This document shows, piece by piece, positions 15,217 through 32,018 of a DNA stretch of 64,000 bases. Under the pieces are notes generated by a model that searched no databases, had not been told where the DNA came from, and worked only from the letters and a program-made list of their open reading frames with translations. A program made the translations under genes and the position numbers. Origin of the DNA: a virus; the IMG/VR virus record IMGVR_UViG_3300045988_079665. One strand, written 5' to 3'. The first letter of the stretch is position 1, and each line of letters begins with the position of its first letter.

Positions 15217-15251
15217 TAGATGATGATAAAAAAGTTGTACAATCGCTGATA

Positions 15252-15279
15252 CTAATATAATACGTTAGTATTATTATAG
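15252..15279 (+). promoter_or_regulatory. leader hairpin or operator with apex aatac-gtta-gtatt
   Basis: The 14-nt core aatacgttagtatt is identical to that at 21480..21493. The lower stem differs in sequence but still pairs. Confidence 0.5.
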
Positions 15280-15338
15280 TGTCACGCAATGTACAAAAAT
15301 TTTACATCAATGTACAAAAAAATAGAAAGGAAGAAAAT

Positions 15339-16379: not shown

Positions 16380-16380
16380 A

Positions 16381-16431
16381 AAATCTGCCCCAATTTATTC
16401 CCTATATGTATAGGGTCTTTGGGGCAGATTT
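16381..16431. terminator. bidirectional terminator
   Basis: 12-bp stem aaatctgcccca/tggggcagattt with A-run upstream and T-run downstream, sited between convergent genes. Confidence 0.75.
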
Positions 16432-16435
16432 CATT

Positions 16436-16630
16436 TTATTCTACTGTATTACAAGTTGAACCTTCATCATAAATGAACGGTGGGTTGCCTGTGTTCACAT
16501 ATGTTAATCCATTGTACTCGTATTTTTGACCAGTACAAATTTTGGCGCTTCTCCAATTTGTCACAAATTGCTTATATTTACATCCTAGCGTCGTTTCTAC
16601 ACATTCAGGCCAATTTGCATTTTCTCTCAA
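16436..16630 (-). CDS. hypothetical protein (64 aa, TTG start)
   Basis: Intact ORF, but weak start context. Confidence 0.4.
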   Translation of the reverse strand: MRENANWPECVETTLGCKYKQFVTNWRSAKICTGQKYEYNGLTYVNTGNPPFIYDEGSTCNTVE

Positions 16631-16688
16631 TTGCTTATATTCTGACCTATTCTAAGTCTCAATAGTTGACGTATATCCACTTGCCATA

Positions 16689-16970
16689 TTACCAAAATGC
16701 ACCTTCATCATAATCTTCAAATCTCCTATTCCATGCTTCAGCGGCTTGTTCTTCCGTGTCGTAAATATATACACCACCCAAAATCCCGCCATCGCACTCA
16801 TAGCTTGCAATCGGACATTCCGGGTTTTCCTCGTGAGCATGGTGAAGCATAAATCCAAGCCCACTATAGGGATGTTCTCTATATGTCTCATCATGCAGAT
16901 TCCCTTCGTCATCGCACAAAACAATGCTAACTTTACCTCCGCAGAATGGGCATAGCTTCAACTTAGTCAT
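16689..16970 (-). CDS. Lar-family restriction alleviation protein
   Basis: N-terminal LKLCPFCGG and C-terminal EEQAAEAWNRR match the Lar-family pattern; preferred over the overlapping frame 16652..16924. Confidence 0.7.
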   Translation of the reverse strand: MTKLKLCPFCGGKVSIVLCDDEGNLHDETYREHPYSGLGFMLHHAHEENPECPIASYECDGGILGGVYIYDTEEQAAEAWNRRFEDYDEGAFW

Positions 16971-17169
16971 CCTTCTTGTCCTCCTCTACACGCGACTTAA
17001 GCCATTCTTTGATTTGCATTGCGCAGGAGCAGCAAAGCTCGATATCGGGTGATTCCTCATGAAACGCGCTTCGTACATTTACATACGTCGCAGAGCTTGT
17101 GGGGTTTATTTCCGCCCCACAACGGTCACATACTCGTTTTGTTGCCATCTTTCTCATCCTCCATTTCAA
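16963..17169 (-). CDS. zinc-ribbon protein (68 aa)
   Basis: CDRCG ... CCSC motifs. Confidence 0.55.
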   Translation of the reverse strand: MKWRMRKMATKRVCDRCGAEINPTSSATYVNVRSAFHEESPDIELCCSCAMQIKEWLKSRVEEDKKDD

Positions 17170-17348
17170 TCCTTCTTATCAAGTTTATTCATGTAATTTT
17201 CAATAATTTTATTAGCTTGGTTTGTTATATTAACCAATCCACCAAGCCCAACAACGATATTCCACTCATTTATGCCAATTTGATAATAGTCATGTCCGGC
17301 ACATTCGATTGGCTTGATTTCTACATAATCTTGATTGATATATTTCAT
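17166..17348 (-). CDS. hypothetical protein (60 aa)
   Basis: Intact ORF with a 4-nt overlap. Confidence 0.5.
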   Translation of the reverse strand: MKYINQDYVEIKPIECAGHDYYQIGINEWNIVVGLGGLVNITNQANKIIENYMNKLDKKD

Positions 17349-17361
17349 TCAATCAATCCTT

Positions 17362-18039
17362 TCAACAATCAAACTCAAATACGATGCGCACATCATCCTC
17401 TGTGCCACCATCTGGAATAAGTCGCCTCAACCCTTCCATCGTTTCATTATAGAACCAATCCGCGCATTCTCTATAGGTGATTGGCGCAAAATAGCAAGCA
17501 GTATAATATTGTTTTGATTCGTCTCTTAGATATTCACCATTGATTAAATCAACCATTTCTGGCTCGGTCAATTTAACAATGTTGCATCCCCATATATCAC
17601 CACTGTAAGAATTTGGTTGTTTACCCTTCATGATATAATCACGATATGTAGCTTCATCAACATAGCCGTATTTTCTATGCAGCTGTTCCCAATCATATTC
17701 GTGCAACTCTCTCAATGTAAGCCAAGAACCATAGCCATATTCATCACCAAACAACACATCATTTTTAGACATATCGTCAGGATAACCCTTTAGATTGGCA
17801 ATAGGATTGAATCTTTCCCCGGTTCTACATCCAGCAAATCCTTCACCATTTCTAACTCCTGCAAGAATGGCAAACAAGTTATAATTGCGACTATCGTCAG
17901 GTTCGCTCATATATTCTTCCATAGCCCATTTCTTGTTTGAAGCTGGGTCATAATATGGATTCTTGAATACTTTAGCAGTTGACATTTCCCACACACCATT
18001 ACGCCGCACTTCGGCAATCATGTTAATATCAGTTCCCAT
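17362..18039 (-). CDS. hypothetical protein (225 aa)
   Basis: Long intact ORF abutting the deaminase gene with no gap. Confidence 0.65.
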   Translation of the reverse strand: MGTDINMIAEVRRNGVWEMSTAKVFKNPYYDPASNKKWAMEEYMSEPDDSRNYNLFAILAGVRNGEGFAGCRTGERFNPIANLKGYPDDMSKNDVLFGDEYGYGSWLTLRELHEYDWEQLHRKYGYVDEATYRDYIMKGKQPNSYSGDIWGCNIVKLTEPEMVDLINGEYLRDESKQYYTACYFAPITYRECADWFYNETMEGLRRLIPDGGTEDDVRIVFEFDC

Positions 18040-18489
18040 CTAATCAATCCTTTCTTCAGCAATTCCATCAGCCGTACTATAGCAAATATGCTTAATTCCC
18101 AATTCTTTTATATATTTCATACAAGCAGGACATGGACGCGCCATTGCTTTATTACCATTTGCATACTCACGATATACATACAGTGTTGATTTGCTAAAAT
18201 CAATATCCAGATATTTTACTTTGCTCAATGCCCTGATTTCGGCATGGAGCGAATTTACCACGCCGCTTTGATTTGGGTCAAATTCACGCTCTGCATTAAG
18301 CCGCTTTTGCAACGGGCTTGTTTTGGTACTATTGCATCCAGTAGCCAGCAATACGCCCTTATAGTACAGAGCTGCGCCAAGGTGGTATCTTGGAAATTCA
18401 GATTCTTTGCTTGCCCTACAAGCCGATTCAATGCCGCGCTTAGTTCTCTGGTTCATCTGGTTCTTTGTGTTCCTCATCAAGCCAATCAA
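18040..18489 (-). CDS. dCMP/cytidine deaminase-family zinc enzyme
   Basis: HAEIRAL (H-A-E) and PCPACMKYI (PCxxC) zinc-binding motifs. The start is uncertain (Met at 18489, 18477 or 18456). Confidence 0.8.
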   Translation of the reverse strand: MIGLMRNTKNQMNQRTKRGIESACRASKESEFPRYHLGAALYYKGVLLATGCNSTKTSPLQKRLNAEREFDPNQSGVVNSLHAEIRALSKVKYLDIDFSKSTLYVYREYANGNKAMARPCPACMKYIKELGIKHICYSTADGIAEERID

Positions 18490-18607
18490 TCCAGCATTCC
18501 GTACATGATTTGATAATGTCAGGACAATGATAATGAGGACATGGCTTTGACATATTTGTAATAGTTTGTTCTTTAGATTGGTTCATCAGCCATTCACGAT
18601 TAGTCAT
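18440..18607 (-). CDS. small Cys/His-rich protein (55 aa)
   Basis: Hand-translated MTNREWLMNQSKEQTITNMSKPCPHYHCPDIIKSCTECWIDWLDEEHKEPDEPEN; ATGA overlap with the upstream stop. Confidence 0.45.
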   Translation of the reverse strand: MTNREWLMNQSKEQTITNMSKPCPHYHCPDIIKSCTECWIDWLDEEHKEPDEPEN

Positions 18608-18792
18608 TCGTTCACCTCACTTTTAATTAAATATTTGTGGCATTTGCAGATAATATCAATAGCTCTTTGAGCTGGAAAGAAATTAGCAGAATTATCGTCA
18701 AAAATACCATACTTCACAAAATTCGCTTCATCATCTGCTTCAGCTTTTTTAAATGCCTCAACCGCATCATCAAGTTTGATATAAATAGCCAT
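18604..18792 (-). CDS. hypothetical protein (62 aa)
   Basis: Intact ORF in the operon. Confidence 0.55.
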   Translation of the reverse strand: MAIYIKLDDAVEAFKKAEADDEANFVKYGIFDDNSANFFPAQRAIDIICKCHKYLIKSEVNE

Positions 18793-19328
18793 TATTCATT
18801 CACCTCATATCCCAATTCAATCAACGTCATAATAGCATAATTAGCCATATCAAGCAACGTGTCCTCAATTTTTTCATCTTTTACCTGAGCATCATGTGAT
18901 ACAGCAAGTGACATAAGTCGATTCATCTTATCACTAAGCCGAGTCACAGCACTGATGATGCCGAGTTTTTTGTATGTGTCACCAAATGAATCACCATAGT
19001 CATGATTTTTGGCTTTATATACCTGATTTAGCTTCTGACAGATTTCATAGTGCCGCGCCACTTTTGACTCAATATGTAACTTTAGGTCATTGGGCTCTTT
19101 GTTGCAACATTTAGCCTCAATATTTTCACAAGCTGCTGGGTCTAGCTTTTTATACCAGTTATAGCATTTGTTGAGCATATCTTCGTCCATTTCATCAAAC
19201 ACACAACCATTGCTATCTGTAAAAACATCTACTTGTTCATCGTATAACTTTCTTAGTTCACAAGTGTCGCATTTATGGCATTCCTGACAATATTCTTCAA
19301 GAGCGTCAATCATCATTTCAGTGGTCAT
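18792..19328 (-). CDS. DUF1599-like (nucleotide-modification-associated domain 1) protein with Cys-rich N-terminus
   Basis: KNHDYGDSFGDTYKKLGIISAVTRLSDKMNRLMSL resembles the DUF1599 core; N-terminal CQECHKCDTC. Confidence 0.55.
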   Translation of the reverse strand: MTTEMMIDALEEYCQECHKCDTCELRKLYDEQVDVFTDSNGCVFDEMDEDMLNKCYNWYKKLDPAACENIEAKCCNKEPNDLKLHIESKVARHYEICQKLNQVYKAKNHDYGDSFGDTYKKLGIISAVTRLSDKMNRLMSLAVSHDAQVKDEKIEDTLLDMANYAIMTLIELGYEVNE

Positions 19329-19352
19329 ATTTATTCATCCTTCATCAATTAT

Positions 19353-19568
19353 TTAGTCATTCAGCATAACGTTCTCAATGTTTTCATACATTGTCCAATC
19401 TTCATCGAGCTTGGCTTTGATTGGTTTGAATGGGCGATATTCAATTCCGTCTTTTTCTTCATACCGCCAGTCACAATCTAGGCAAGCCCATACATCAATA
19501 GGCGGCAATGTACAGATACAAGTATGGTAAATATCGCCACCACACTTTGGGCAAGTATAGATAATCAT
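19353..19568 (-). CDS. zinc-ribbon protein (71 aa)
   Basis: CPKCGG ... CLDC motifs. Confidence 0.55.
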   Translation of the reverse strand: MIIYTCPKCGGDIYHTCICTLPPIDVWACLDCDWRYEEKDGIEYRPFKPIKAKLDEDWTMYENIENVMLND

Positions 19569-19871
19569 TTATTTATCCTCCTCATCTAGCGTTCTATTAG
19601 CTAACACAATTTCTTTTGCTTCTTCATATGTCAACACATCATCAAACGTATGACCAACATCTTCAATTATTGAGTCAAGAGCATATCCACCCCATCCATC
19701 ACCAACATCAATACCGTCTGCATTGAATTTAAGAAATTTTCTAAATGTATCATACCATCCTAAACACCAGTCTCTATCACCGCATTGTTCGCAGTATAAG
19801 TCGTGTGGTGAGATATAAGCATCACTTGTATAATAACCGCCTAGATGGCTTTCATAAACATAAGCTCCCAT
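19569..19871 (-). CDS. hypothetical protein (100 aa)
   Basis: Intact ORF abutting its neighbours. Confidence 0.55.
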   Translation of the reverse strand: MGAYVYESHLGGYYTSDAYISPHDLYCEQCGDRDWCLGWYDTFRKFLKFNADGIDVGDGWGGYALDSIIEDVGHTFDDVLTYEEAKEIVLANRTLDEEDK

Positions 19872-19874
19872 AAT

Positions 19875-21035
19875 TTATTCATCCTCCTCATTTTCATCAC
19901 AATTTTCATCTACAAAATGGACATCTACATTGAAAATTTCTTTCAGAACATCAATAGCTTCTTTTGGCTCGATGCGGAAAAATTCTCTATCTGGGTTGAC
20001 CCGCTCTTTGTCGAAATATTTATGGATATTATTTTCCAGCTCAAAGCAATCATCACTGAATACAAAACAATGAGCATGATATGGTTCTGGCAAGCTGCTT
20101 GAGCTAAGTTCACGCACTCTTAATGCAGGATTCAATCTTCTAGTGCAACCGAGCTTTACCAATCCGGGCAAGCTTGGTGAACTAATTACATATAGCCAAC
20201 CAGCTTTGCTATGTGATTCACGATAAGCAATAGAATCGAGCCGCTTGTCAATACTAGCTAATTGAGATTTAATTCTATTACGCTCATCGTCTGTTAGCGC
20301 TTTATCAAACGCAATATTCATTGCTTTCTTTTCTTCAAGCAATTTAGCGCGTTCTCTAGCAATATCAGCAAGCAACTGTTCCTGTTCTTTTAATCTGCGC
20401 TTTTCTTCACGGATTCGCGCCTTTTCTTCTTTCTGTTTAACCTTAATTGCTAAGTTGATATATAGCATATCAAGCCGCGCCTTTACATATTCAGCATTGA
20501 GCGCCAATCCGACTTTATTTGCCTTAGACTGATAAGAATTAAATTTATTCTTAATCAATTCTTTGCTCTTAGCAATATTGCTTGTTGTTATGGATTTTTC
20601 TTTGTTGTCAATATATTCTGACATAGCATAGCACAATCCGCGCCCATATACATCCTGCATTTCTTTACCGCGCCTAGCAGAATCATTGAGGGTATATCCT
20701 TGCTCAATGCGATATAGACCAGTATTTACGGCAGATTCAATTTTGCTTTGTAGCTCATAGCGTTTATGCTCAAGTTCATCTAGTGAATCTTGATAATATG
20801 GGATATTATAATCCTGCATTTCTTCAATGGTATGGATTTTGCCATTTAGAGCATTAAGGACGGATTGAGCTTCTTTTGCGGCGATTTCGGCACTTTCTGC
20901 TGATTTACGGCTTTTTTCTTCTTTTGTTTCAAGAGAATCAATTTCCTTATACAACTCTTGAATCTTAAAGTCTAGTAAATCGATATAATGCTCAAGTTCT
21001 TTCTTCTTCTTGTTCATCTTGAAAATCTCGAACAC
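19875..21035 (-). CDS. coiled-coil (DUF4041-like) plus C-terminal T5orf172/MUG113 GIY-YIG-like domain protein
   Basis: Long heptad-rich N-terminal part. The C-terminal GWLYVISSPSLPGLVKLGCTRR...RVRELSS...FFRI fits the T5orf172 pattern. Confidence 0.65.
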   Translation of the reverse strand: MFEIFKMNKKKKELEHYIDLLDFKIQELYKEIDSLETKEEKSRKSAESAEIAAKEAQSVLNALNGKIHTIEEMQDYNIPYYQDSLDELEHKRYELQSKIESAVNTGLYRIEQGYTLNDSARRGKEMQDVYGRGLCYAMSEYIDNKEKSITTSNIAKSKELIKNKFNSYQSKANKVGLALNAEYVKARLDMLYINLAIKVKQKEEKARIREEKRRLKEQEQLLADIARERAKLLEEKKAMNIAFDKALTDDERNRIKSQLASIDKRLDSIAYRESHSKAGWLYVISSPSLPGLVKLGCTRRLNPALRVRELSSSSLPEPYHAHCFVFSDDCFELENNIHKYFDKERVNPDREFFRIEPKEAIDVLKEIFNVDVHFVDENCDENEEDE

Positions 21036-21222
21036 GCCTAGCCGCCTCCTTGCTAAAAATTTTATCTATATGCTTATCAAAATCCAATGGATTATTGCTC
21101 TTTGCTAAAATTTGCTTGGTGCTGGTATTATATAGCTCGAATTGCCCATTGCCGCAATCGTTGATAATCCAGCCTGTATCGCCATATTGGACTACGGCGT
21201 TAATTTTCTTTGTTCTTGGCAT
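20992..21222 (-). CDS. hypothetical protein (76 aa)
   Basis: First gene downstream of the promoter at 21243..21271. Confidence 0.55.
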   Translation of the reverse strand: MPRTKKINAVVQYGDTGWIINDCGNGQFELYNTSTKQILAKSNNPLDFDKHIDKIFSKEAARRVRDFQDEQEEERT

Positions 21223-21242
21223 TTATTTCACCTCATATTGCA

Positions 21243-21271
21243 ATTATATCACAGCCATTTGCATTTGTCAA
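21243..21271 (-). promoter_or_regulatory. sigma70-type promoter TTGACA-17-TATAAT
   Basis: Perfect consensus; the leftward member of a divergent promoter pair. Confidence 0.8.
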
Positions 21272-21302
21272 GCATAATTTTTGGCAAATTGATTTTTCCC
21301 AT

Positions 21303-21352
21303 CAATTTAACTATTATCTACGAATGTATATGAGTAGATAATAGTTAAATTG
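21303..21352. promoter_or_regulatory. 19-bp perfect inverted repeat with 12-bp spacer (candidate operator)
   Basis: caatttaactattatctac (21303..21321) and gtagataatagttaaattg (21334..21352), sited between the divergent promoters. Confidence 0.6.
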
Positions 21353-21436
21353 TAATTATATATTATTATATATACTAATAGATATTATAACATAGAAAGT
21401 ATGTAATGTCAATAGAAAAATTTTTTATTTTACCAC

Positions 21437-21465
21437 TTGACAAAGTGATGAATATATGGTATAAT
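21437..21465 (+). promoter_or_regulatory. sigma70-type promoter TTGACA-17-TATAAT with TGn extension
   Basis: Perfect consensus; the rightward member of the divergent pair. Confidence 0.8.
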
Positions 21466-21472
21466 ATAGTAA

Positions 21473-21500
21473 ATAAGTAAATACGTTAGTATTTACTTAT
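21473..21500 (+). promoter_or_regulatory. 12-bp perfect leader hairpin ataagtaaatac-gtta-gtatttacttat
   Basis: Begins 8 nt after the -10; shares its 14-nt apex with the element at 15259..15272. Confidence 0.6.
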
Positions 21501-21558
21501 ACATTGTTTCTTTCTTTTGGTTCTTTTCTTTCTTAGAATTTATAGATAGGAGATAAAT

Positions 21559-22137
21559 ATGGAAAATAATAACGTTGTATATAAGCACACTAACTTAGAA
21601 AATGGATTGGTCTATTATGGGATTGCTGAAAATTATGTAACAAGATGGAATGACGGCTTTGGATACCAAACAAATCAGAGATTTTGGAAAGATATAGTAA
21701 AATATGGATGGAAAAATTTTAAGCATGAGATACTTGTGGAAAATCTAACTCGCGATGAGGCAAAATTTTATGAAGGTATGCTAATTCAAGAAACAGGCTC
21801 GTATCTTCCTGAGAACGGATATAATCAAAGTCTTGGCGAACATATGAATTATCAAGAAGTAACACCTGATGATATTAGAGATGACATTATTAGAACACAA
21901 AGACCAAGAACTGGGCGTGCAGGTACACCAGTTGTTTGCAATGGAAAGACGTATTTGACGATTGCTGAATTGTCCGAAGAAATCAATGAAGATGCTGGTG
22001 TGCTTGCTCAGATGCTAAGTCCTGCTTGCACAAGAAAAATGTCTAAAATTTATGAAGATATGGGGCTTAGATATGCTACAGAAGATGAAATTCTTGCCTG
22101 TGTGAATGAGCGAATGGAAAGAGATATCTTGGGTTGA
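21559..22137 (+). CDS. GIY-YIG homing endonuclease-like protein
   Basis: N-terminal VVYKHTN..NGLVYYGIA ... R.....H..... E pattern of GIY-YIG (Seg-like) enzymes, free-standing, with a C-terminal DNA-binding-like tail. Confidence 0.7.
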   Translation: MENNNVVYKHTNLENGLVYYGIAENYVTRWNDGFGYQTNQRFWKDIVKYGWKNFKHEILVENLTRDEAKFYEGMLIQETGSYLPENGYNQSLGEHMNYQEVTPDDIRDDIIRTQRPRTGRAGTPVVCNGKTYLTIAELSEEINEDAGVLAQMLSPACTRKMSKIYEDMGLRYATEDEILACVNERMERDILG

Positions 22138-22162
22138 CAAATAATCAAATATATGATATAAT
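22134..22162 (+). promoter_or_regulatory. sigma70-type promoter TTGACA-17-TATAAT
   Basis: Perfect consensus; the -35 contains the TGA stop of the GIY-YIG gene. Confidence 0.75.
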
Positions 22163-22191
22163 AGCATTAAGCTCAAGGAGGTGGTAAGAAA

Positions 22192-22335
22192 TTGTGGAGC
22201 GAGATGAGCTATAACTGGTATGTATCGGAAGATACAGAGCCAGAAGTATGGGATGATGAATATGAACCAACTGAGCGCGATTGGGTGCTTTGGATATATG
22301 GTAGTTCAGAGAATGAATTAGAGGTGATTTATTAA
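22192..22335 (+). CDS. small acidic protein (47 aa, TTG start)
   Basis: AAGGAGGTGG RBS 6 nt upstream; the stop abuts the GTG start of the RNA polymerase gene. Confidence 0.45.
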   Translation: MWSEMSYNWYVSEDTEPEVWDDEYEPTERDWVLWIYGSSENELEVIY

Positions 22336-24924
22336 GTGCCATTAACAGAGTTCTGTTATATACCTTCTGTGGCAACGGATGCTTTTTATACGCCAGAGGA
22401 ACAAGTAATACATAATCGACTTGTCAAGCTATATGCCTTGAGAATGCGCGAGAAGAATGGTCAGAATCGAAAATGGCGTGTTTCATCAATTAACCGTGTT
22501 ATCAAGAAGCATAAAGATGAACTTGTTGAGTTGCTGAGAAAATCGCTTGAAGACAACATTACAAGAGAACTTAATCCAGATGCGGTAACAGATAAGACAA
22601 TTATTAACCTGTTTTGTTCTGAGTTGACTCGTAGCCTTGGCATTAAGACATTTGAGCGAAGTGACAAAATTATTATTGTCAATGTTTTCTTTTTCGAGGT
22701 ATTAAACAGCATCATTCATAATGGATTCAATTACAATGGGGAGCATTATATTTTCTATTCATGTGGCGCTGGCATGATACGTACAAAGCGATTTATGGCT
22801 GTTCGTGAAAAAGATTATTTGGCGGTTGAACAAACCCTCATGTGTGGACTGACCATTGAATCAATCAATGCGCTGGGTGGCATGAATGAAAATAAACTAT
22901 TGAGCTATAAGAGCCTTATGGCATCTGCAACAGATAGAATTACAGACTTTGACATAGACCGTTGCATTATAGTTGATGATTTCGAAATGCCAGTTATGGC
23001 TGAATCAGATTTCATTGATTATACGGATTATAGCATTACGCGTAAAACATCAGAGACAATTATAGCTGAAACTGACGGTTGGGGAATGTGTTGCAAGCCC
23101 GGATTTAAGACACAGATTGTTCGTGCGCCTTGGATAAAAGGACTAGTGTCATACTTTGATTTTAGGGCATGGTTAAAGGAATATTGTCCTGCCGACGATT
23201 GGACTGTAACTGATATATACGGAAGAGAATGGAATATTATTGTGGATGACATTCAGTATATATTAACTAAATCAATGTTTAAGTTGTATAAATTTTATCC
23301 ATCTTGGCTTTGCTACAAGACTAATTTTAAGAGTTATGGTTGTTATTTTGGATGCTGTAAAGTTGAGGAAGATTATATACCAAAGGCGCGAATCAATTAT
23401 CAGATGCTTCAATCTCTAAGTGATATGACGGATAATGAGATTGAGCGGCTTATTGCCAAGACAGCAGATGAAATTAATAGTGTCGGGAGAGATTATCAAA
23501 CTACCATGAGACTATTAGGCGCGACTGAATACAATCAAACAAAATCAGCCATGCAAGAAGCGTTGACAATATATCCAGAATTATTTAAAGATGCGTATAA
23601 CCGGGAGTTGTTGAAACAGACAAAGAAAAGTTTGGTAAAACAAGCAAAAGGTGGCAGATTGAGAATTAACGGCAAATACCTGTTTATTTCGCCTGACCCT
23701 GTGGCATTTTGTGAGTGGTTGTTCAAAGGTGAGCAATTCCCAACTGGTATACTTGAGAATGGAGAGGTTTATACTAATCAATTCAAAGATGGTGACGAGC
23801 TTGATTGTTTGAGAAGCCCACACTTGTATCAGGAACACGCGGTTAGAATCAACAAGCGAAATGGGCTGACCGATAAATGGCTTGGCGGAACAAAATGCAT
23901 ATATTTCAGTGCACACGATATGATTAGTCGTATATTACAACAGGACTTTGATGGGGATATTTCCTTGGTTGTGAAGGATAAGACGTTGACAACTGTGGCA
24001 AAGCGCAATATGCAAGGAATTGTACCGTTATCGTATGACCTCAAAAAAGCACGTGGCGGTATTATTGATGCGGATAGACTGTATGAAGGTGTAAGTACTG
24101 CATATACAGGTGGGTCGATTGGCCCGATTAGTAATGCAATCAGTAAGGTAAAAAATGCTAATGGTGGTAAAATGACTGAGGAGCAAATTAGAGTAATTGC
24201 TTGGCTTACAATGAAGAACAATCAAATTATTGATTTTGCGAAAACGTTATGGAAAAGTGAGCCACCAAAAGAAATTGCAGATATTATAAAAAAATATACA
24301 AAGTCAAAATTGCCTCATTTTTTTATCTATGCCAAAGACAAAGACCCAGATACTCAAGTTGAGTTGCCAAATAATTCCACGATGAATCGTATATCAGCCA
24401 AAATCCCTACTTCTCGAATTCGATATAATAACAAGATTGGGAAATTCGATTGGACGATGTTGATAAATAAATCAGTCGATTATACTACTAGAGAAAATTC
24501 ACCAATCATTGAGCGGTATAATTGGTGGATGTGGAATCAGCGCCGATTTGATTATGGCGATGACCCGCATATCAATGAGGACGATTTATATAAATATCGT
24601 CGCATAGCACAAGATATTGTGGAATATAGCAACGAGCCACTAGATGTTGTGGCAAATAGCCTAGTTGCTTATCTATATACAGTTAAAAAATCAAGCAATA
24701 AGAAAATGCTGTGGGCTTGTTTCGGTTGGACGATTGTAGAGAATTTGAGAACCAATACGGCGCAACTTAATCCAATCTGTCCCATTTGCGGCAAGCGCTT
24801 CAAGCCGCGAGATGTATGTCAGCATTATTGCTCAGAGGAATGTTATAAGAAAGCAGATAATCAGAGGCGTACTGAATCGCGCGAAGCCCCACCTGTCCGC
24901 ACGGGGGACATGTTAAAACAGTAG
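22336..24924 (+). CDS. YonO-like single-subunit two-barrel (multisubunit-RNAP-related) RNA polymerase
   Basis: 862 aa. RSPHLY...(38 aa)...QQDFDGD mirrors the beta-prime RAPTLH...NADFDGD catalytic barrel. Size and phage context match SPbeta YonO, HU-like genes lie downstream as with yonN, and the C-terminus has a zinc ribbon. Confidence 0.7.
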   Translation: MPLTEFCYIPSVATDAFYTPEEQVIHNRLVKLYALRMREKNGQNRKWRVSSINRVIKKHKDELVELLRKSLEDNITRELNPDAVTDKTIINLFCSELTRSLGIKTFERSDKIIIVNVFFFEVLNSIIHNGFNYNGEHYIFYSCGAGMIRTKRFMAVREKDYLAVEQTLMCGLTIESINALGGMNENKLLSYKSLMASATDRITDFDIDRCIIVDDFEMPVMAESDFIDYTDYSITRKTSETIIAETDGWGMCCKPGFKTQIVRAPWIKGLVSYFDFRAWLKEYCPADDWTVTDIYGREWNIIVDDIQYILTKSMFKLYKFYPSWLCYKTNFKSYGCYFGCCKVEEDYIPKARINYQMLQSLSDMTDNEIERLIAKTADEINSVGRDYQTTMRLLGATEYNQTKSAMQEALTIYPELFKDAYNRELLKQTKKSLVKQAKGGRLRINGKYLFISPDPVAFCEWLFKGEQFPTGILENGEVYTNQFKDGDELDCLRSPHLYQEHAVRINKRNGLTDKWLGGTKCIYFSAHDMISRILQQDFDGDISLVVKDKTLTTVAKRNMQGIVPLSYDLKKARGGIIDADRLYEGVSTAYTGGSIGPISNAISKVKNANGGKMTEEQIRVIAWLTMKNNQIIDFAKTLWKSEPPKEIADIIKKYTKSKLPHFFIYAKDKDPDTQVELPNNSTMNRISAKIPTSRIRYNNKIGKFDWTMLINKSVDYTTRENSPIIERYNWWMWNQRRFDYGDDPHINEDDLYKYRRIAQDIVEYSNEPLDVVANSLVAYLYTVKKSSNKKMLWACFGWTIVENLRTNTAQLNPICPICGKRFKPRDVCQHYCSEECYKKADNQRRTESREAPPVRTGDMLKQ

Positions 24925-25012
24925 GAAATATATGGATAAAATTAACTCACCACAATATGTTGTGGTAGACTAATAGGGAGACATATCTTTGAAATGAAGG
25001 GTGGTGAATGTG

Positions 25013-26104
25013 ATGGCATACATGGCTTATAAATTTAGGATGTATCCCAATACTGAACAGGAAAATCTTATAATAAAGACATTTGGTTGTGTTCGGTTTA
25101 TTTATAATAAGATGCTTGAAGATAAAATAAAGTTTTATGAATGTACAAAGAAAAGATTAAATAATACTCCCGCACAATATAAAAAAGAATATCTTTGGTT
25201 AAGAGAAGTTGACGCTTTTGCTTTGTGCAACGCACAAATTCATTTGCAAGCAGCATATAATAATTTTTTTAAGAATCCAAAGAGCGGGTTTCCTAAATTT
25301 AAGAGTAAGAAAACGGGCAAGAATAGTTATACAACAAATAACCATTCGGAAAATATAAGGATTGTAGATAAAACTATTAAACTTCCGAAACTTGGAATGG
25401 TTAAAATAAAGCAACACAGAGAAATCAAGCAAAATCAAAAAATTAAGTCTGTTACCATCACAAGAAAACCATCTGGGAAATACTTTGTATCAATTTTAGT
25501 TGAATATAATATTGTTGAAAAGTCGGTAAAATTAAATAAGGAAAAATCGATTGGACTTGATTATTCAAGTCATAGCTTTTACGTCGATAGCCAATGTGTA
25601 GAAGCAGATTATCCACGATTTTATCGAGCGTCTCAAGATCATTTGTCCAAAGAGCAAAGGAAGTTGGCTACAATGAAGAAAGGTAGCAACAATTATTATA
25701 AGCAAAAAGTAAAAATTGCTACTATTCAAGAAAAAATAGCAAACCAAAGAAAAGATTGGATGCACAAATTAAGTACAGAATTATCAAATAAGTACGATTA
25801 TATTTGCGTTGAAGATATAAATTTACAACAAATGTCACAGCATTTAAATCTTGGGAAATCTACATATGACAATGGATTTGGTATGTTTAGAGATATGCTT
25901 TTTTATAAATTAAAGCAAAGAGGGAAAAAGTTCATCAAGATTGATAAATGGTATCCATCTAGTAAAATGTGTAGATATTGTGGCACGATAAATTCTAATT
26001 TAACTCTAAGCCAAAGAGTATGGACATGTGAATGTGGAAAAGTGCTTAATAGGGATGAAAATGCAGCGATTAACATATTGAACGCTGGATTAAGTATGAT
26101 ATAA
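25013..26104 (+). CDS. tnpB: TnpB (IS605 OrfB) RNA-guided nuclease
   Basis: N-terminal MAYKFRMYPN. RuvC triad contexts IGLDYSS, ICVEDINL and NRDENAAINIL, plus the zinc finger CRYCG...CECG. Confidence 0.85.
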   Translation: MAYMAYKFRMYPNTEQENLIIKTFGCVRFIYNKMLEDKIKFYECTKKRLNNTPAQYKKEYLWLREVDAFALCNAQIHLQAAYNNFFKNPKSGFPKFKSKKTGKNSYTTNNHSENIRIVDKTIKLPKLGMVKIKQHREIKQNQKIKSVTITRKPSGKYFVSILVEYNIVEKSVKLNKEKSIGLDYSSHSFYVDSQCVEADYPRFYRASQDHLSKEQRKLATMKKGSNNYYKQKVKIATIQEKIANQRKDWMHKLSTELSNKYDYICVEDINLQQMSQHLNLGKSTYDNGFGMFRDMLFYKLKQRGKKFIKIDKWYPSSKMCRYCGTINSNLTLSQRVWTCECGKVLNRDENAAINILNAGLSMI

Positions 26105-26200
26105 ATAAAAAATAACCGTAGGGGCTACGGAGTTAGCTTGTTGATACTTATGCTTTAAGCATATTGAGCAAGAAATTTGTTGAAACACAAATAGCCCACT
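26000..26200 (+). ncRNA. putative omega (right-end) RNA of TnpB (approximate)
   Basis: Hairpin-dense right end: 26116..26130, palindrome 26149..26163 and tttgt/acaaa near 26176..26190, in the position expected for the TnpB guide RNA scaffold. Confidence 0.4.
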
Positions 26201-26218
26201 AGGGAAAGGACGATATAA

Positions 26219-26638
26219 TTGCATAAAAATAAATATCCTCGGCTAGGCAAAGCCGATATGAGCAAAGAGCTACGACGGCGCACAGGCGTTGATTCTAAAA
26301 TCATTGAGCTAGTGTTAAGAAACTATCATGACATTATTCGTGAGACACTACAACATGGCGTGGAATATTCTTTGCCAGATATTGGTGTTATTACATTCCG
26401 CGACCACCCACCAAAGCCAGCTGGCGAATATTGGAACGGATTCCAAAAGCGGCGTATGTACTATCCTGACAGAATGGGATATTATCGACTAGAGTTTAAG
26501 GCTGAGAAACATATGGCTAGTTATGTAAAAGCTGGTACATTGTATGGTAAAGGCCCGACAAAAGAAGAATGGGATGCTTGGGTATTAGAGAATTATCCTA
26601 ATAATCCTAAGTTTGCTAAGGAAGAAGAAGATGGCTGA
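26219..26638 (+). CDS. divergent HU/IHF-like DNA-binding protein (139 aa)
   Basis: The pattern SKELRRRTGVDSKIIELVLRNYHDIIRETLQHG..YSLPDIGVITF resembles the HU fold (helix-helix-beta arm). TTG start; ATG 26258 is an alternative. Confidence 0.5.
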   Translation: MHKNKYPRLGKADMSKELRRRTGVDSKIIELVLRNYHDIIRETLQHGVEYSLPDIGVITFRDHPPKPAGEYWNGFQKRRMYYPDRMGYYRLEFKAEKHMASYVKAGTLYGKGPTKEEWDAWVLENYPNNPKFAKEEEDG

Positions 26639-27194
26639 ATATAATAAGCTGAATCAAGAATTTTATGCTTATGCTGGTGGATTGCTCAATGTATCGCCAC
26701 AGACTGCCAAGAAATATTGGATGGGGTTTGTTGATACTATCATCCATATTCTTCATTTTGATGGCAAATGCCAAATGCCAAGTGTAGGCACATTTACACT
26801 AGAAGAATTGCCTGAGCGTAGAGTAATGGCTAAGAATGAGCAGGGTGAACTTGTTGAGCAAATTAACCCTGCTTGGTTTAAGATATTATACAAATATAAT
26901 GAGGATTTTCTTAATAACGTAAATGGACGCGGCGTTACAAAGAAATATCGTAGGCGTGTTCGTGAACGTAAGTTGACACCAAATGATCTCAAGCTGATAA
27001 CTCAAGCTGAAATGGAACGAACGGCAAAGCGAACATTAGAGCAAATGCAAAATGAGCGCATTGAGAAAGCAAAGCAACAGAGCTATGATGATTTTATCAA
27101 TGTCATCAATCAGAAAAAAGAAGATTATGAACGGAAAAAGAAGGAAAAGGAACAGAAATTGAATGAATCTAATGAAGATACGACAAGCGACTGA
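26631..27194 (+). CDS. divergent HU/IHF-like protein with basic/acidic coiled C-terminal tail
   Basis: TAKKYWMGFVDTIIHILHFDGKCQMPSVGTFTL resembles the HU core. Start set to ATG 26631 (AAGGAAG RBS, ATGGCTGA overlap with the upstream stop). Confidence 0.45.
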   Translation: MAEYNKLNQEFYAYAGGLLNVSPQTAKKYWMGFVDTIIHILHFDGKCQMPSVGTFTLEELPERRVMAKNEQGELVEQINPAWFKILYKYNEDFLNNVNGRGVTKKYRRRVRERKLTPNDLKLITQAEMERTAKRTLEQMQNERIEKAKQQSYDDFINVINQKKEDYERKKKEKEQKLNESNEDTTSD

Positions 27195-28347
27195 GCTGCT
27201 AGATAGCAAATTGATTGACTTGCAAGAATGGACGGCTCGTTGTCTTGGTGAGGATTATAGGGGCGTCTGGTCAGAGGAATATTTACGTCGATGTGCTGTG
27301 TTTGTTCGCAATATGCTAAATGGCGCAGACGATTGTGAGTCAGACGAAAAAGACGCTGAGATTTTAGCCCAGCTTAAAGAAGCAAAAATTGAGTTAGAGA
27401 AAGAACGCAAGAAATTACAGAGCGAGAATATTCAGTATGTTCAAAATCAGAGACTTGACGCAAGAGCAGACTTGATTCAAGAAAAGATTGCTGAGTCGAT
27501 TAAGAACCTTGAGCCGTTTACTATTCGTGAGTTTAACATTCTGCCGCAAATGAATGTAAGTGGACTTCTTTGTATTTCTGACCTTCATGCTGGCTCGACC
27601 TATGAAATCAAGGGTGCATATAATGAAATTGTAAACAAGTACAATTTTGATATTATGAGGGCGCGGCTTGATGGGTTGCTTAACAAGATGTGTAATGATG
27701 ACAACTGCATCTGGATTGATGATATTACGGTTGCTGTGCTCGGTGACTGCGTAGAGAATATTTTACGTACATCTAGTTTAACTAAGCTAAGAGAGCCAGT
27801 TATTGATACGGTTATCAAGTTGTCTGAATATCTGGCTGATTGGTTTGTTGAGTTACATGACCGGCTTGAAATTCCTGTTAATGTGGTGATGGTTGGTGGT
27901 AACCATGATGTATGCCGCCCGTTGACATCTAAGCCACAGTTTGAGGAAGAAAATCTAGGTAAAATCATTGTATGGTATCTACAAGAGCGGTTAAAGTCAG
28001 TAGATGGAATTACAGTTGATGATTACACAGATTGTGCTATTAAATACATTAAGAACAATGCAATCATGCTTCATCATGGGGATGGCGGCGATGTAACTGA
28101 GACAATGCGATATTTTGAAAATTTATATAATATTGACATTGATGAATGCTACGTTGGGCATCTACACCGACAAGAAATGAAGAATGCTGGTATTACTGAG
28201 TTAGGTGATAAACTGTGTTGGCGCGTTGGCTCGGTATGCGGTGTTGATGGATTTGCCAAGTCTATTCGTAAAGCATCAAGACCATCTTGTATGTTTACTA
28301 CATATTCAGAAGATGGTGCAGAATGGCGTAAAACATTTTATCTTTAA
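27163..28347 (+). CDS. calcineurin-like metallophosphoesterase (SbcD/Mre11-like)
   Basis: Ordered motifs ISDLHAGS (DxH), VLGDCVEN (GD), VGGNHD (GNHD), HHGD and VGHLH (GH). Confidence 0.75.
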   Translation: MNLMKIRQATELLDSKLIDLQEWTARCLGEDYRGVWSEEYLRRCAVFVRNMLNGADDCESDEKDAEILAQLKEAKIELEKERKKLQSENIQYVQNQRLDARADLIQEKIAESIKNLEPFTIREFNILPQMNVSGLLCISDLHAGSTYEIKGAYNEIVNKYNFDIMRARLDGLLNKMCNDDNCIWIDDITVAVLGDCVENILRTSSLTKLREPVIDTVIKLSEYLADWFVELHDRLEIPVNVVMVGGNHDVCRPLTSKPQFEEENLGKIIVWYLQERLKSVDGITVDDYTDCAIKYIKNNAIMLHHGDGGDVTETMRYFENLYNIDIDECYVGHLHRQEMKNAGITELGDKLCWRVGSVCGVDGFAKSIRKASRPSCMFTTYSEDGAEWRKTFYL

Positions 28348-28349
28348 TA

Positions 28350-28378
28350 TTGACAATCAATAGATTATGTGATATAAT
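28350..28378 (+). promoter_or_regulatory. sigma70-type promoter TTGACA-17-TATAAT
   Basis: Perfect consensus; there is no ORF downstream for about 970 nt. Confidence 0.8.
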
Positions 28379-28384
28379 ACAACT

Positions 28385-29306
28385 ATGGAATTGCGGCTAA
28401 TATCTGCGGAGTTAGCCTTGGCTTGGGGATGCGTCCTACAAGTCTCATAATAGAGGAAAAGTCTGAACTCTTTTCGCCGTCACAAGACGGAATTTAGAAC
28501 AATCGGTAGCGTCAGTTGCAAATGGCGCTACCAACTTAAATTGATTCATTCTCTGCTAGGTGATAGCTATTTTAGCTGTGTTAATCATGCTTGTGGGGCG
28601 ATTGACCCACCTAGTAGAGTTGGATATCTTCGCCGTGAATCTGCAATTCAGCAGAGCCTGATACGAGCGTGTCATATACTGTGGCGAGATATGACAATTT
28701 ATCTCGTGTACCATGCGTACATGGAGTTTTCAGGGTCGTTTATGGCGGCTCTTGCAAAATCCTATCCTTGACGATAGGCGTATAGCAACAGGTGTGTTAT
28801 ACGAGCGTATGAAGCATAGAACCGGGTTGTCTTTCGGCAATATGTGGACGTTAATCGAAGGTTTGCGGTATACCATATGGCAACAATGAAAACCGCATCG
28901 CCATTAGAACGATGCAAAGGCGAGATGTGATGGCATCTAATACCCATTGCACCATAATACCGAGCGACACGGTAAATATGTCGCACTTGTAAAATGATAA
29001 AACATAACAATGAGTGGCGCTCGATACCGGCATGCGCTTGATAAATACCGGACATTGATGAGTCCCTAGGCAAGGACAATAAACTACCTGTCGCTACTAC
29101 TCATTGGCGGCTATGAATATCCGAAAGGAGGTCACTATTCTCTTGAATTATCCACTGGTTTATCCGAAGCATAATTAAAGAAAGGATGGTGGTCAGAGCC
29201 AATCGGCTCATATCTACAATAAGCCCAACTCAATGGGAACTGTTGTTTAACTGAATATTGAACCTTGACAAATACAAAGCAGCTGAGAGCAATCTTGGCT
29301 GCTTTG
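28385..29306 (+). ncRNA. about 0.9-kb non-coding transcription unit (candidate large structured RNA)
   Basis: Bounded by a promoter and a terminator, with no credible ORF and elevated GC. Numerous helices, for example 28505..28532, 28685..28706, 28964..28984 and 29196..29209. Confidence 0.5.
29275..29306 (+). terminator. hairpin terminator
   Basis: 9-bp stem caaagcagc/gctgctttg followed by tcatattta. Confidence 0.55.
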
Positions 29307-29349
29307 TCATATTTATAGGAAAGTAAACGGAACAGAAAGGAATGAGAAT

Positions 29350-30174
29350 ATGTTTTGCCCATATTGCGGCAAGGAAAAGCAAGACAGCCAATTCTATAAA
29401 AGCCCAATCAAAACGGGCGAATATATTAAGCCATGCAAATCATGCGTAACTGAGATATATAAACAAGCTCTTGAATCTACTAAAGACCAAGGCGCGGCAT
29501 TATGGTCAACTTGTATGCAGACTGGCATTCCCATGAGACGTGCTGAATATACGGCTTGTCTTGATACGCTAGAAAAGGCGGCTAAAGGTAAAAAGCCTAG
29601 TCTATTTATGTTGTATCATACATACTTATCAACATCTCCTGATAAATTAACAGGCGTATGGGATAGCGATATGGAGTTGTCTAATTTCAAGGATTTGGGC
29701 GATGTAGCTAAGGGTGAAACAGATGAAGTTGCGCTTAAAGCAAGATGGCGCAAACAATGGGGCGGTGACTATGAAGATGAGGACTGTCAATGGCTAGATG
29801 ATATGTTCGATAGCTATACGGCAGATATATTTGAAATGGATACCGCTATGGAAATGCGTTATCGTGATCTGTGTAAGCTAGAACTTGAACAGTATAAAAA
29901 TGGTGTTAATAAAGACACTCAAGCACAGATCAAAACGTTAATGTCACTACTTAAACTTGATGATTTTAAGAGTAATCAGAAGTCGGACGCGGAACGAGCA
30001 TTTGAGAAACGTATAGCTTGGGTGGAATATACTAAACCATCTGAATGTGAAGATTTGACAAGATTCGTAGATATGGTTGGATATGAAAAGGACAAGGGTG
30101 AAAAGATGCGTAGCTTGCGCAACGCTGTTGCTGGCACTAGAGATTATCCAGCAATCCCGAAGGAGGAAGCATAA
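29350..30174 (+). CDS. terS: probable terminase small subunit with N-terminal zinc ribbon
   Basis: Lies immediately upstream of terL and overlaps it (ATAATG). N-terminal CPYCG...CKSC; assignment rests on position only. Confidence 0.5.
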   Translation: MFCPYCGKEKQDSQFYKSPIKTGEYIKPCKSCVTEIYKQALESTKDQGAALWSTCMQTGIPMRRAEYTACLDTLEKAAKGKKPSLFMLYHTYLSTSPDKLTGVWDSDMELSNFKDLGDVAKGETDEVALKARWRKQWGGDYEDEDCQWLDDMFDSYTADIFEMDTAMEMRYRDLCKLELEQYKNGVNKDTQAQIKTLMSLLKLDDFKSNQKSDAERAFEKRIAWVEYTKPSECEDLTRFVDMVGYEKDKGEKMRSLRNAVAGTRDYPAIPKEEA

Positions 30175-32018
30175 TGCGCTCTAGGATGGGCGGTCTTAGA
30201 GAATCATTTAAGGCTGATAAACTTCGCGCCGTATCTGGCATATCTAAAAAAATAGATAGTGCCTTAGAAGATAACATCATAGAGTGGACAACTCTATTCA
30301 GACGAAATTGGGATATATTTGCTGAATTTTATCTAGGGATTCCATTAAAACCATATCAGCGTCAGGCATTACATGAAATTGGTGTATCAGATGTGTACTT
30401 TTGGAGAGCAGGACGTGGCGGCGCAAAATCGTTTATTACTATGCTTGCGGCGGTCTGCAAGCTACTATTGTATCCAAACTGTCAGATAGTTATTACATCC
30501 TCTACTGTTGACCAAGCTAATAAGATGGTCAAAGAAAAGCTAGAGAAAGAATTGATAAAAAAGTTATCTCAACTACTTTTGCTTTATTATGAAAAAGACT
30601 GGATAAAAATAACAAAGCCGAACGATGGATATTATGTAGAGTGTACACTTAACAATTCGTCCATTACTGTTCTTGCCCCTGTTGAATCAGCTAGAGGTTC
30701 GCGTTCTAACTTTACCATATATGATGAGGTTGCCATTATGAAGAAAACGGCAATAGACCAAATCTTTGATGGGATGTTGTTTCCAAGGCAACCAAATTAT
30801 TTAAGCAATCCTGCATATTCTGGAAACAAGAGATGGATAGAAGAATCTAAGAGTATATATCTAACATCATCTAAGTTCAAGTTCCAGTGGTGGTATAGAT
30901 TGTGGTGCGATTGTGTAACAGGATATTATGTTGATAAGCGTACTAAATATGGCATATTCGCAACTGACTTTTTTGATAATATAGAAAATGGCTTAAAAAC
31001 ATGGGGTGATTATCGTAGAGCTAAAAGGCAGAACGACGATATATCATTTAGGACAGAATACTTAAATGAAGCGATTGGCGAGTCAGAGGATTCTTTCTTT
31101 AGTCTTGAATCATTTAAGGAAAATCAAGTTATTACAGATGCGTTTTGCCCACCAAAACCGATGGATTTATTGGTTGCTAGTGAATTAGAAGATGACGAGA
31201 AAAAAGACGATGAAGTGCGCCTCATTGTATCTGACTTTGCTTGGACAACAACTGGCAAAAAAGCAAACGAATCGGATAATAGCATTGCTATATGTATAAG
31301 AGCAAAGTGGAAAAAAGACCATTTTGATAAATATGTAGAATATATTGAACTGCTACCAACGGCAGATGACGCAGATGGTTGTGCTGATAGGTTAAAAGAA
31401 TTGTTTTGGTTGTATCAAGCAGACTATTTAGTGCCTGATGCTAGATCGGGTGGCGAAGCGGTTATGATAGCTTTATCTAAACCATATACCAATGAACGTT
31501 ATTCGGCGTTCATCAATAATCATGGCCTAACTATGGCTGATAAAAAAGAATATCATGTGGCTCGACCCGATAAGCTAGATTACTATAGAGCCAATGCAGT
31601 AGACCCAAATGCTTATCCTTGTATCATACCTATTGTTGGTAGTGAAACGCTCAATACGTCTTATTGGAAAGCAACTAAAATGTCACTTGAGAATAATCGT
31701 ATAAAATTCTTGATAGGGATGAGCGATAAGCAAGATGTTATTGTTGAAACTGGCGAATATTACAAATACACCGGCGAACAGATAGCAGATATACTTGCGC
31801 CTCATGGCAATACTGATTTGCTTATATCGGAGGCAGTTAATTTAACCACCATATTCAAAGGCGAAAACATTAAACTGGAAGCGCCGAGAACAGGGCATCG
31901 TGACCGTATTGTTACATTAGCTATGGGTATTTTAATATGTGATTATATTGAAAATGAATGGAATAGACAGAATCATGCTGAAGAATATGATTTAGATGAC
32001 ATTCAATTAGTATATTGA
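30174..32018 (+). CDS. terL: terminase large subunit
   Basis: Walker A-like AGRGGAKS and Walker B-like FTIYDEVA; 614 aa; directly upstream of the portal-sized gene. Confidence 0.85.
   Translation: MRSRMGGLRESFKADKLRAVSGISKKIDSALEDNIIEWTTLFRRNWDIFAEFYLGIPLKPYQRQALHEIGVSDVYFWRAGRGGAKSFITMLAAVCKLLLYPNCQIVITSSTVDQANKMVKEKLEKELIKKLSQLLLLYYEKDWIKITKPNDGYYVECTLNNSSITVLAPVESARGSRSNFTIYDEVAIMKKTAIDQIFDGMLFPRQPNYLSNPAYSGNKRWIEESKSIYLTSSKFKFQWWYRLWCDCVTGYYVDKRTKYGIFATDFFDNIENGLKTWGDYRRAKRQNDDISFRTEYLNEAIGESEDSFFSLESFKENQVITDAFCPPKPMDLLVASELEDDEKKDDEVRLIVSDFAWTTTGKKANESDNSIAICIRAKWKKDHFDKYVEYIELLPTADDADGCADRLKELFWLYQADYLVPDARSGGEAVMIALSKPYTNERYSAFINNHGLTMADKKEYHVARPDKLDYYRANAVDPNAYPCIIPIVGSETLNTSYWKATKMSLENNRIKFLIGMSDKQDVIVETGEYYKYTGEQIADILAPHGNTDLLISEAVNLTTIFKGENIKLEAPRTGHRDRIVTLAMGILICDYIENEWNRQNHAEEYDLDDIQLVY

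Follow-up and report, generated by a model that had tools for sequence, protein, structure and literature searches.

What transcribes the structural genes of a phage in which strong host promoters are missing from the entire structural region? The question is raised by the 64,000-nucleotide (nt) stretch of IMG/VR virus record IMGVR_UViG_3300045988_079665, analysed here and called the window. A preliminary description, made from the sequence alone, had interpreted one uninterrupted open reading frame (ORF) on its + strand (22336..24924, GTG start, 862 amino acids (aa) in the ORF listing) as the gene of a YonO-like single-subunit RNA polymerase that drives late transcription. By its sequence, the protein is a full-length orthologue of YonO, the polymerase of the Bacillus phage SPbeta; it is another member of a known family, and the protein itself is already present in databases. 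From this orthology and from the synteny with SPbeta we infer that it very probably has the same role as YonO, in which the host would make the polymerase and the phage enzyme would then transcribe a late block that has no promoters of the host type. To our knowledge, YonO is the only characterised bacterial-virus polymerase with the two-barrel core of cellular RNA polymerases, and the same enzyme is found here, in the same genomic slot, in an abundant metagenome-derived phage group of ~90 kb.

Homology, motifs and predicted fold

The YonO-like identity is borne out over the whole chain. BLASTP aligned the protein with SPbeta YonO over its full length (550 bits, E = 0, 338/843 identities, 40%), and yonO was likewise among the tblastn matches (NC_001884, E 5e-169, 96% coverage). 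Against deposited phages, tblastn returned 40 records, all below 60% identity. Matches at 39-40% identity and 96-99% coverage come from SPbeta-like phages, C. botulinum phage D-1873 and Psychrobacillus phage Perkons. Among the 40 records are SPBc2 yonO and the SPbeta-like phages phi3T and Goe11-14 (annotation 'DNA-directed RNA polymerase'); farther matches come from Enterocloster and Thomasclavelia phages, in genes named 'RNA-dependent RNA polymerase'. In PHROGs the protein belongs to phrog_8308 (E 1.4e-225). An identical protein sits in a public cluster of 772 members (90% identity) on phage contigs of 80-140 kb, whose named members are called 'MAG TPA: RNA dependent RNA polymerase [Caudoviricetes sp.]'.

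Relatives are encoded by 394 stretches of IMG/VR viral contigs, of which 80 distinct loci were kept, and by 183 genome stretches. These loci were obtained through the polymerase protein, after a loosely defined DNA pattern, meant to catch the RNA core described below, had performed poorly against IMG/VR, with mostly chance matches (one true match among 120). When 20 kb of the window was compared with deposited phages by megablast, no match was returned, and at the nucleotide level the lineage is, as judged by this search, unrelated to any deposited phage. Metagenome bins give inconsistent taxa for the related contigs.

The catalytic motifs lie exactly where the preliminary description had placed them. 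The RSPHLY codons (aa 493-498) occupy 23812..23829 (+) and correspond, in the catalytic barrel, to the RxPxL(H/Y) strand; the DFDGD codons (aa 537-541), which specify the metal-binding aspartate triad, occupy 23944..23958 (+). RSPHLY is separated by 36 residues from QQDFDGD and by 38 from DFDGD. The catalytic barrel of the beta-prime subunit follows the same logic, RxPxLH and then (N)ADFDGD, and the motifs corresponding to RSPHLY are RAPTLH in beta-prime and RNPCLHPGD in cellular RNA-dependent RNA polymerases (RdRPs). In the BLASTP alignment RSPHLY faces RSPHLF of YonO, and DFDGD faces DNDGD. An alignment of 47 homologues, spanning the clade of the window and the Bacillus YonO clade at 40-92% identity and including B. 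subtilis YonO, leaves R493, P495, H496, L497, D537, D539, G540 and D541 invariant, so that both beta-prime-type motifs, RxPHL and DxDGD, are kept throughout. The protein sequence contains LDCLRSPHLYQEHAVRINKRNGLTDKWLGGTKCIYFSAHDMISRILQQDFDGDISL. A second set of residues, R263, P265, K268 and G269 among others, is also invariant in the 47 sequences and may belong to the beta-like barrel, for which K312 and K316 are further candidates. By analogy with YonO, D537, D539 and D541 would hold the Mg2+ ion during catalysis; in YonO, changing the aspartate triad to asparagines abolishes activity (Forrest et al., 2017, PMC5467207).

Near the C-terminus, a four-cysteine element (CPICGKRF...CQHYCSEEC, 24778..24843, +) is formed by C815, C818, C832 and C836, all four invariant in the 47 homologues; the first three of them align with YonO cysteines in BLASTP. 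Pfam and PDB searches gave weak zinc-finger-type matches only. From its sequence the element is probably a zinc ribbon, perhaps with a role in nucleic-acid or promoter binding.

A first AlphaFold run, with 27 close homologues, left the catalytic region at a predicted local distance difference test (pLDDT) score below 50 and was dropped as a basis for statements on the fold. The AlphaFold2 model built from the 47 sequences has a mean pLDDT of 89.3 and a predicted template-modelling score of 0.84, with beta-strands framing the DFDGD loop. Foldseek of this model against the PDB gave 21 significant matches, all to the two-barrel enzymes RDR2 or QDE-1 (E 1.3e-19 to 7.7e-12, alignments of 727-968 columns, template-modelling scores of 0.43-0.56). 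The next matches were Rpb1, NRPD1 and beta-prime chains, which at E 0.1-0.4 are not significant; among these, the alignment with 8xmc_A had a probability of 0.96 and a root-mean-square deviation of 3.0 over 132 columns. In the viral library the best match was a phage 'RNA dependent RNA polymerase' (7.9e-36). The whole-chain match indicates that the modelled protein carries two double-psi beta-barrels in a single chain, the fold for which the preliminary description had suggested a search. Sequence searches of a copy of the PDB, with the single sequence and with a 27-sequence profile, returned nothing relevant and no YonO-type chain, and homology to solved structures is therefore seen at the level of the fold only.

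Pfam detected none of its RNA polymerase domains, RNA_pol_Rpb1 included, in the protein. With no Rpb1 domains and Foldseek E-values of 0.1-0.4, the protein does not group with the multisubunit beta-prime/Rpb1 chains. The YonO family is one of ~100 kDa chains that lack the other domains of multisubunit RNA polymerases, and the 862-aa protein is of this size and has no such Pfam domains. As read from its sequence and model, the protein agrees with the YonO family in every feature of sequence, fold and context open to testing.

Could the enzyme instead be an RdRP that copies or amplifies RNA, for example the large structured RNA encoded nearby, and does not transcribe DNA? The name carried by the members of the 90%-identity cluster says so, relatives match the Pfam RdRP family PF05183 (18 of 27 close relatives, best E 3.3e-16, many homologues carrying it as a precomputed domain), and the best structural matches, RDR2 and QDE-1, are RNA-dependent enzymes. 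These names, however, derive from the Pfam family and not from experiments, and the PDB holds complexes of QDE-1 with DNA templates, so RNA is not the only kind of template in that clade. YonO, which shares 40% identity along the full chain, is a strictly DNA-dependent RNA polymerase, and a processive one, that strongly prefers DNA templates and nucleoside triphosphates, works independently of rifampicin, pauses less than the E. coli polymerase and is without proofreading hydrolysis (PMC5467207). As the synteny with SPbeta also points to the same role, we consider RNA-templated synthesis highly improbable. The public labels for this family, 'RNA-dependent RNA polymerase' or no name at all, should be replaced by 'DNA-directed RNA polymerase, YonO type'.

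Host promoters, the late genes and the structured RNA

Both strands of the window were searched with the promoter pattern TTGACA-N16-18-TATAAT. Perfect sigma-A promoters numbered 11, when 0.12 were expected, and all lie within 4638..28378; the spacer is 17 nt and the -10 element TG-extended in every one (TTGACA-17-TGnTATAAT), and each is oriented like the local genes. Such uniformity of format among 11 consensus host promoters is unusual. The structural region (28379..64000, 35.6 kb) contains no perfect promoter, compared with the 11 in the other 28 kb, and relaxing the pattern to 11 of 12 matched positions added just one + strand site in the late region. The earlier claim that consensus sigma70 promoters are scarce in the structural genes is, in this form, statistically strong.

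The - strand carries the genes up to 21035 and the + strand all those from 21559 on, with few gaps from 22192 to 64000. A perfect promoter (TTGACA-17-TGaTATAAT, 22134..22162, +), whose -35 element overlaps the stop codon of an upstream GIY-YIG gene, directly precedes a small ORF and the polymerase gene; the host RNA polymerase should therefore make the phage enzyme. The small ORF (22192..22335, +, 47 aa) has its own Shine-Dalgarno sequence, AAGGAGG, is 82% identical to a 49-aa ORF of the relative L083 and holds the slot that yonP has in SPbeta; similarity to SPbeta YonP was not detected. It ends directly at the polymerase start, with stop and start codons adjoining (TAAGTG). From the sequence this very acidic ORF appears to be translationally coupled to the polymerase gene, and its product is possibly a partner of the polymerase. 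The start codon of the polymerase itself is supported by a GAGGTGA Shine-Dalgarno sequence 8 nt upstream of the GTG, by homologues of 92-96% identity that have equal length, 100% coverage and a matching N-terminus, and by residues M1 and L3, invariant in 27 close homologues (alignment A1).

Downstream of the polymerase, the first gene shared with relatives is an HU-like one (26219..26638, +). It encodes a divergent HU-fold DNA-binding protein of 139 aa (Pfam Bac_DNA_binding, E 3.9e-5, 24.2 bits with a cut-off of 22.4; phrog_379, 'DNA binding protein') and is, by its place, the positional counterpart of yonN, in agreement with the adjacency that had been proposed by analogy with SPbeta; in C. 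botulinum phage D-1873, hup likewise directly follows the YonO homologue. The plural 'HU-like genes' of the preliminary description is verified for this gene and not for its neighbour, a conserved 193-aa ORF (26613..27194, +) that matches nothing in Pfam or PHROG; its alignment with the HU-like protein is non-significant (18% identity), and the homologous position in the relative L087 has a faint Bac_DNA_binding match. There follows a YonJ-like metallophosphoesterase/exonuclease gene (27163..28347, +; BLASTP against YonJ E 2e-25, Pfam Metallophos, phrog_284), of which one relative's copy shows a weak Pfam YonJ_CC match. The head of the late, structural module extends over 29350..33837 (+) and comprises the first late gene, which is YonG-like (29350..30174, +; Pfam YonG_N in relatives), the large terminase (30174..32018, +) and the portal (32257..33837, +). 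Genes for a virion structural protein, the tape measure and a tail protein lie farther downstream.

We propose that this arrangement works as in SPbeta, where the formation of plaques depends on YonO, the enzyme that transcribes 37 late genes (PMC5467207). The host RNA polymerase would make the enzyme early or in mid-infection from the promoter at 22134..22162. The enzyme would then transcribe the late block of the + strand, that is, the packaging, head and tail genes from ~29350, and its transcription may begin already at the HU-like gene.

The YonJ-like gene is separated from the YonG-like one by a non-coding region of ~1 kb (28348..29349) that contains a structured RNA (28541..29307, +), which is previously undescribed. 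Its 5' module (28541..28640, +), identified by nhmmer and folding, is a three-way junction with a long closing helix. nhmmer found it at 33 loci, always on the + strand; the closing helix covaries as judged by eye, has G-U pairs on the + strand only, and the module folds with a minimum free energy of -35.6 kcal/mol (z -4.5). Further on, a drum-like element (28804..28900, +; Rfam RF02958, E 3.1e-5) scores 37.6 bits, below the gathering score of 43, and is thus not counted as a member of that family. The 3' core (29117..29259, +) has seven helices with 32 base pairs and was defined with a covariance model, R1, built from six sequences with a hand-assigned seven-helix structure. R1 found 44 copies in the loci searched, all on the strand of the polymerase gene and downstream of it, and wherever genes had been called or the sequence inspected, they lie just upstream of the YonG-like gene. 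Pairing is kept in 95% of cells, compared with 77% in shuffles and 30-54% for slid partners, and compensatory changes affect 28 of the 32 pairs; the fitting of the alignment to the model inflates these figures somewhat. When the window sequence was folded independently by minimum free energy, however, the helices of the core came out again. Rfam 15 gave no family at E <= 1 for the 3' core and the 5' module.

The RNA ends in a terminator-like 15-base-pair hairpin followed by CAUAUUUAU (29274..29307, +; -22.4 kcal/mol, z -5.6), 43 nt ahead of the first late gene. Equivalent hairpins occur in relatives, among which that of L029 is a canonical one followed by UUUUUU. Upstream of the RNA, a facultative cassette of ~190 nt (28348..28540, +), comprising a promoter and ~160 nt, separates the structured RNA from the YonJ-like stop codon in this genome and in about half of its close relatives. 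In relatives without it, the 5' module starts at the YonJ-like stop codon, its first bases pairing downstream with G-U pairs, and the structured RNA is therefore made within a transcript begun farther upstream.

Our preferred speculation is that this RNA serves as a gate for the late switch, in which the structured RNA and its hairpin would stop host read-through, whereas a pause-insensitive enzyme of the YonO type would pass. In a variant of this coupling, the RNA would be an element that the enzyme needs to start or to become processive, and not a gate that the host enzyme cannot pass. We regard a functional coupling of the polymerase to the structured RNA as doubtful. If true, such a coupling would place several orphan RNA motifs in a functional setting for the first time and open a way to the YonO promoter.

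The wider proposal, that the enzyme transcribes the late genes as YonO does, has to be set against several points. On its own, the polymerase matches no Pfam family, PF05183 included, even at E <= 1, and BLASTP detected no similarity between the HU-like protein and SPbeta YonN. The operon boundary may differ from that of SPbeta, as the long non-coding region here lies past the YonJ-like gene. The U-tract after the hairpin, CAUAUUUAU, is weak and termination may be inefficient, and the study of YonO reports less pausing and no test of read-through at intrinsic terminators (PMC5467207). Finally, a perfect sigma-A promoter (28350..28378) lies in the facultative cassette, at the head of the late region, and could let the host enzyme enter that region in this genome.

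The last of these points leads to a second alternative, in which the phage enzyme makes replication primers or transcribes the non-coding RNA region only, and the host polymerase reads the late genes by anti-termination from the promoters at 22134 or 28350. The promoter at 28350 immediately precedes the structured RNA and the late genes, and the few gaps between the + strand genes from 22192 to 64000 make read-through from 22134 conceivable. With its structured leader RNA and terminator-like hairpin, the region resembles RNA-based anti-termination systems in general layout. About half of the close relatives, however, lack the 28350 promoter (L083, L209, L216, L239, L241 and L251, for example) and keep the same late genes, which hence cannot generally depend on it. 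The absence of any strong host promoter over 35.6 kb also speaks against this alternative, as does the yonO deletion in SPbeta, which silences exactly the late cluster (PMC5467207). We hold such an arrangement to be highly improbable, and retain late transcription by the phage polymerase as the preferred reading.

Where would this enzyme start? The most conserved non-coding motif past the polymerase gene, GACTAATAGGGA (24968..24979, +), lies 44 nt past the polymerase stop codon; in relatives the HU-like gene's Shine-Dalgarno sequence comes immediately after it. The motif is kept where the relatives' polymerases are 44-97% identical, and is not found in the 40% clade or in SPbeta. It could be a control element, or may just belong to the HU-like gene's 5' region. 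The word TAATAGGGA was considered as a repeated phage promoter and rejected: the relevant place has a single copy, the window shows no excess of it (17 matches with at most one mismatch, 18.6 expected), and in the 40% clade it is not seen downstream of yonO; it is retained as a lead only. In 72 loci, k-mers were compared downstream of yonO to find a motif in common, which gave A-rich low-complexity words only. Beyond SPbeta, this phage group offers comparative material in the split between host-promoter and promoter-less regions, in the conserved motif past the polymerase gene and in the covarying RNA before the late genes, and these three are concrete places to seek the start site of the enzyme.

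Mobile elements and interrupted polymerase genes

The block around the polymerase gene carries several mobile elements. A free-standing GIY-YIG homing endonuclease gene (21559..22137, +; Pfam GIY-YIG, phrog_314) is found upstream and is not present in the relative L083. The TnpB insertion that had been noticed between the polymerase and the HU-like gene is confirmed: a TnpB-only element of the IS200/IS605 type (approximately 24980..26197, +), delimited by junction alignment with relatives, has TAGGGA at both junctions and carries a tnpB ORF (25001..26104, +; Pfam OrfB_IS605, Cas12f1-like_TNB and HTH_OrfB_IS605, and a PHROG match). The site is empty in the relatives L083 and L208, and the TnpB gene is therefore a real insertion. 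It sits exactly in the conserved GACTAATAGGGA motif, between ACTAATAGGGA and AAGGA. We considered whether the TTG start of the HU-like gene was supplied by the right end of the element, which is ruled out by the relatives with the empty site, as they have the TTG too. The ORF at 15279..16379 was rejected as a second TnpB. Close relatives from public assemblies have neither the GIY-YIG gene nor the TnpB element.

An HNH homing endonuclease gene (47670..48806, +) precedes the tape measure gene, and relatives bear other homing endonuclease genes (NUMOD3, GIY-YIG) elsewhere in the same region; because such genes sit at varied places, this block of the genome is a hot spot for selfish elements. In the early region, calls were obtained for tRNA-Met (CAT; 3368..3442, -) and for tRNA-Ile (TAT; 5330..5422, -), the latter being long for a tRNA at 93 nt.

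In many relatives the polymerase gene itself is broken by inserts of ~1 kb at three recurrent sites, with the exons remaining in order. One of these sites is inside the catalytic motif, between D537 and D539; in L256, the insert (9602..10573) contains an HNH endonuclease ORF and exon 1 ends right past ...MFD. Inserts follow codon 633 in L214, L221, L218, L239 and L241, lie near codons 186-190 in L005 and L016, and occupy two sites in L261 and L079. A like split of the gene is seen in the deposited SPbeta-like phages Goe11, Goe14 and BUCT083. Rfam detected no group I or group II intron in the inserts, which may be either introns or the marks of split genes.

That the gene is an inactive relic or has a non-catalytic (structural or regulatory) function, as its want of a Pfam match of its own and a locus crowded with GIY-YIG, TnpB and the HNH gene at 47670 might suggest, is extremely improbable given an intact ORF, catalytic and barrel residues invariant in 47 sequences at 40-92% identity, a cluster that unites, at >=90% identity, 772 members from phage contigs of 80-140 kb, and exons kept in order in relatives with an interrupted gene.

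Comparison with known systems

Several known non-coding RNAs come close to the RNA of the window. Drum and DUF3800-I were described as highly conserved multi-helix non-coding phage RNAs with a terminator-like hairpin after them (Weinberg et al., 2017, PMC5737381). The window RNA fits this description, contains the drum-like element, and is followed 2.7 kb downstream by a bona fide drum RNA (32023..32143, +; RF02958, 45 bits with a gathering score of 43) in the 238-nt gap between terminase and portal. It differs from drum, DUF3800-I to -XI, skipping-rope and ROOL in its 3' core and 5' module, which match no Rfam 15 family. Other YonO loci have drum, DUF3800-VIII or ROOL in a comparable position. 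A general link of these RNAs to YonO was considered and is not established: of 23 loci scanned with Rfam (20 further YonO loci, the window, SPbeta and D-1873), just five carry one, and most have only tRNA arrays. A drum RNA lies downstream of the YonO homologue of D-1873 (L002 16656..16763). ROOL RNAs were seen by tRNA arrays, 1-3 kb downstream of the YonO homologue and on the same strand, in a Clostridiales genome (L037 15100..15698), which also has a transfer-messenger RNA, and in an Anaerofustis genome (L056 13652..14217).

The polymerase of the window shares with QDE-1 of Neurospora and the plant RDR2 the single-chain two-barrel layout, the DxDGD loop and, in the model, a structural match over nearly the whole chain. 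Identity to them is 11-13%, and they are eukaryotic RNA-silencing enzymes, whereas the characterised phage relative, YonO, is DNA-dependent. Multisubunit RNA polymerases have a core of ~400 kDa, unlike this single chain of 862 aa, which by sequence lacks most of the other domains; YonO, too, has no detectable trigger-loop homology (PMC5467207).

The closest system is that of SPbeta, in which the order is yonP, yonO, yonN (HU), a non-coding region, yonK, yonJ, yonG, yonF (terminase) and yonE (portal). A start site of YonO was published at position 2225998 of B. subtilis 168 (PMC5467207). The published primer-extension primers map to 15282-15305 and ~15499-15525 of our SPbeta locus (L001) and bracket the site to 15306..15498, 1.2-1.4 kb upstream of yonK. 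The leader of SPbeta (L001 15306..16703) contains a DUF3800-VIII motif (16381..16446, 47.5 bits, gathering score 40.2), unlike the window RNA, which combines the drum-like element with a new core. Resemblances between the two can be seen by eye (TGCGGCT..., GCTACTAATCA and ATG.GGG.GC), but homology is not established, as the nhmmer profiles of the 3' core and of the 5' module and the covariance model R1 found nothing in SPbeta. The long non-coding region of the window follows the YonJ-like gene, whereas that of SPbeta precedes yonK-yonJ; the related metagenome contigs measure 80-100 kb and SPbeta 134 kb, and in the window TnpB separates the polymerase from the HU-like gene. The two enzymes are alike in length (862 and 839 aa), in RSPHL(Y/F) and D(F/N)DGD at the same spacing and in the C-terminal cysteine element, and the two genomes share the order of a divergent control region, a small ORF, the polymerase, an HU-type gene, YonJ, YonG, the terminase and the portal.

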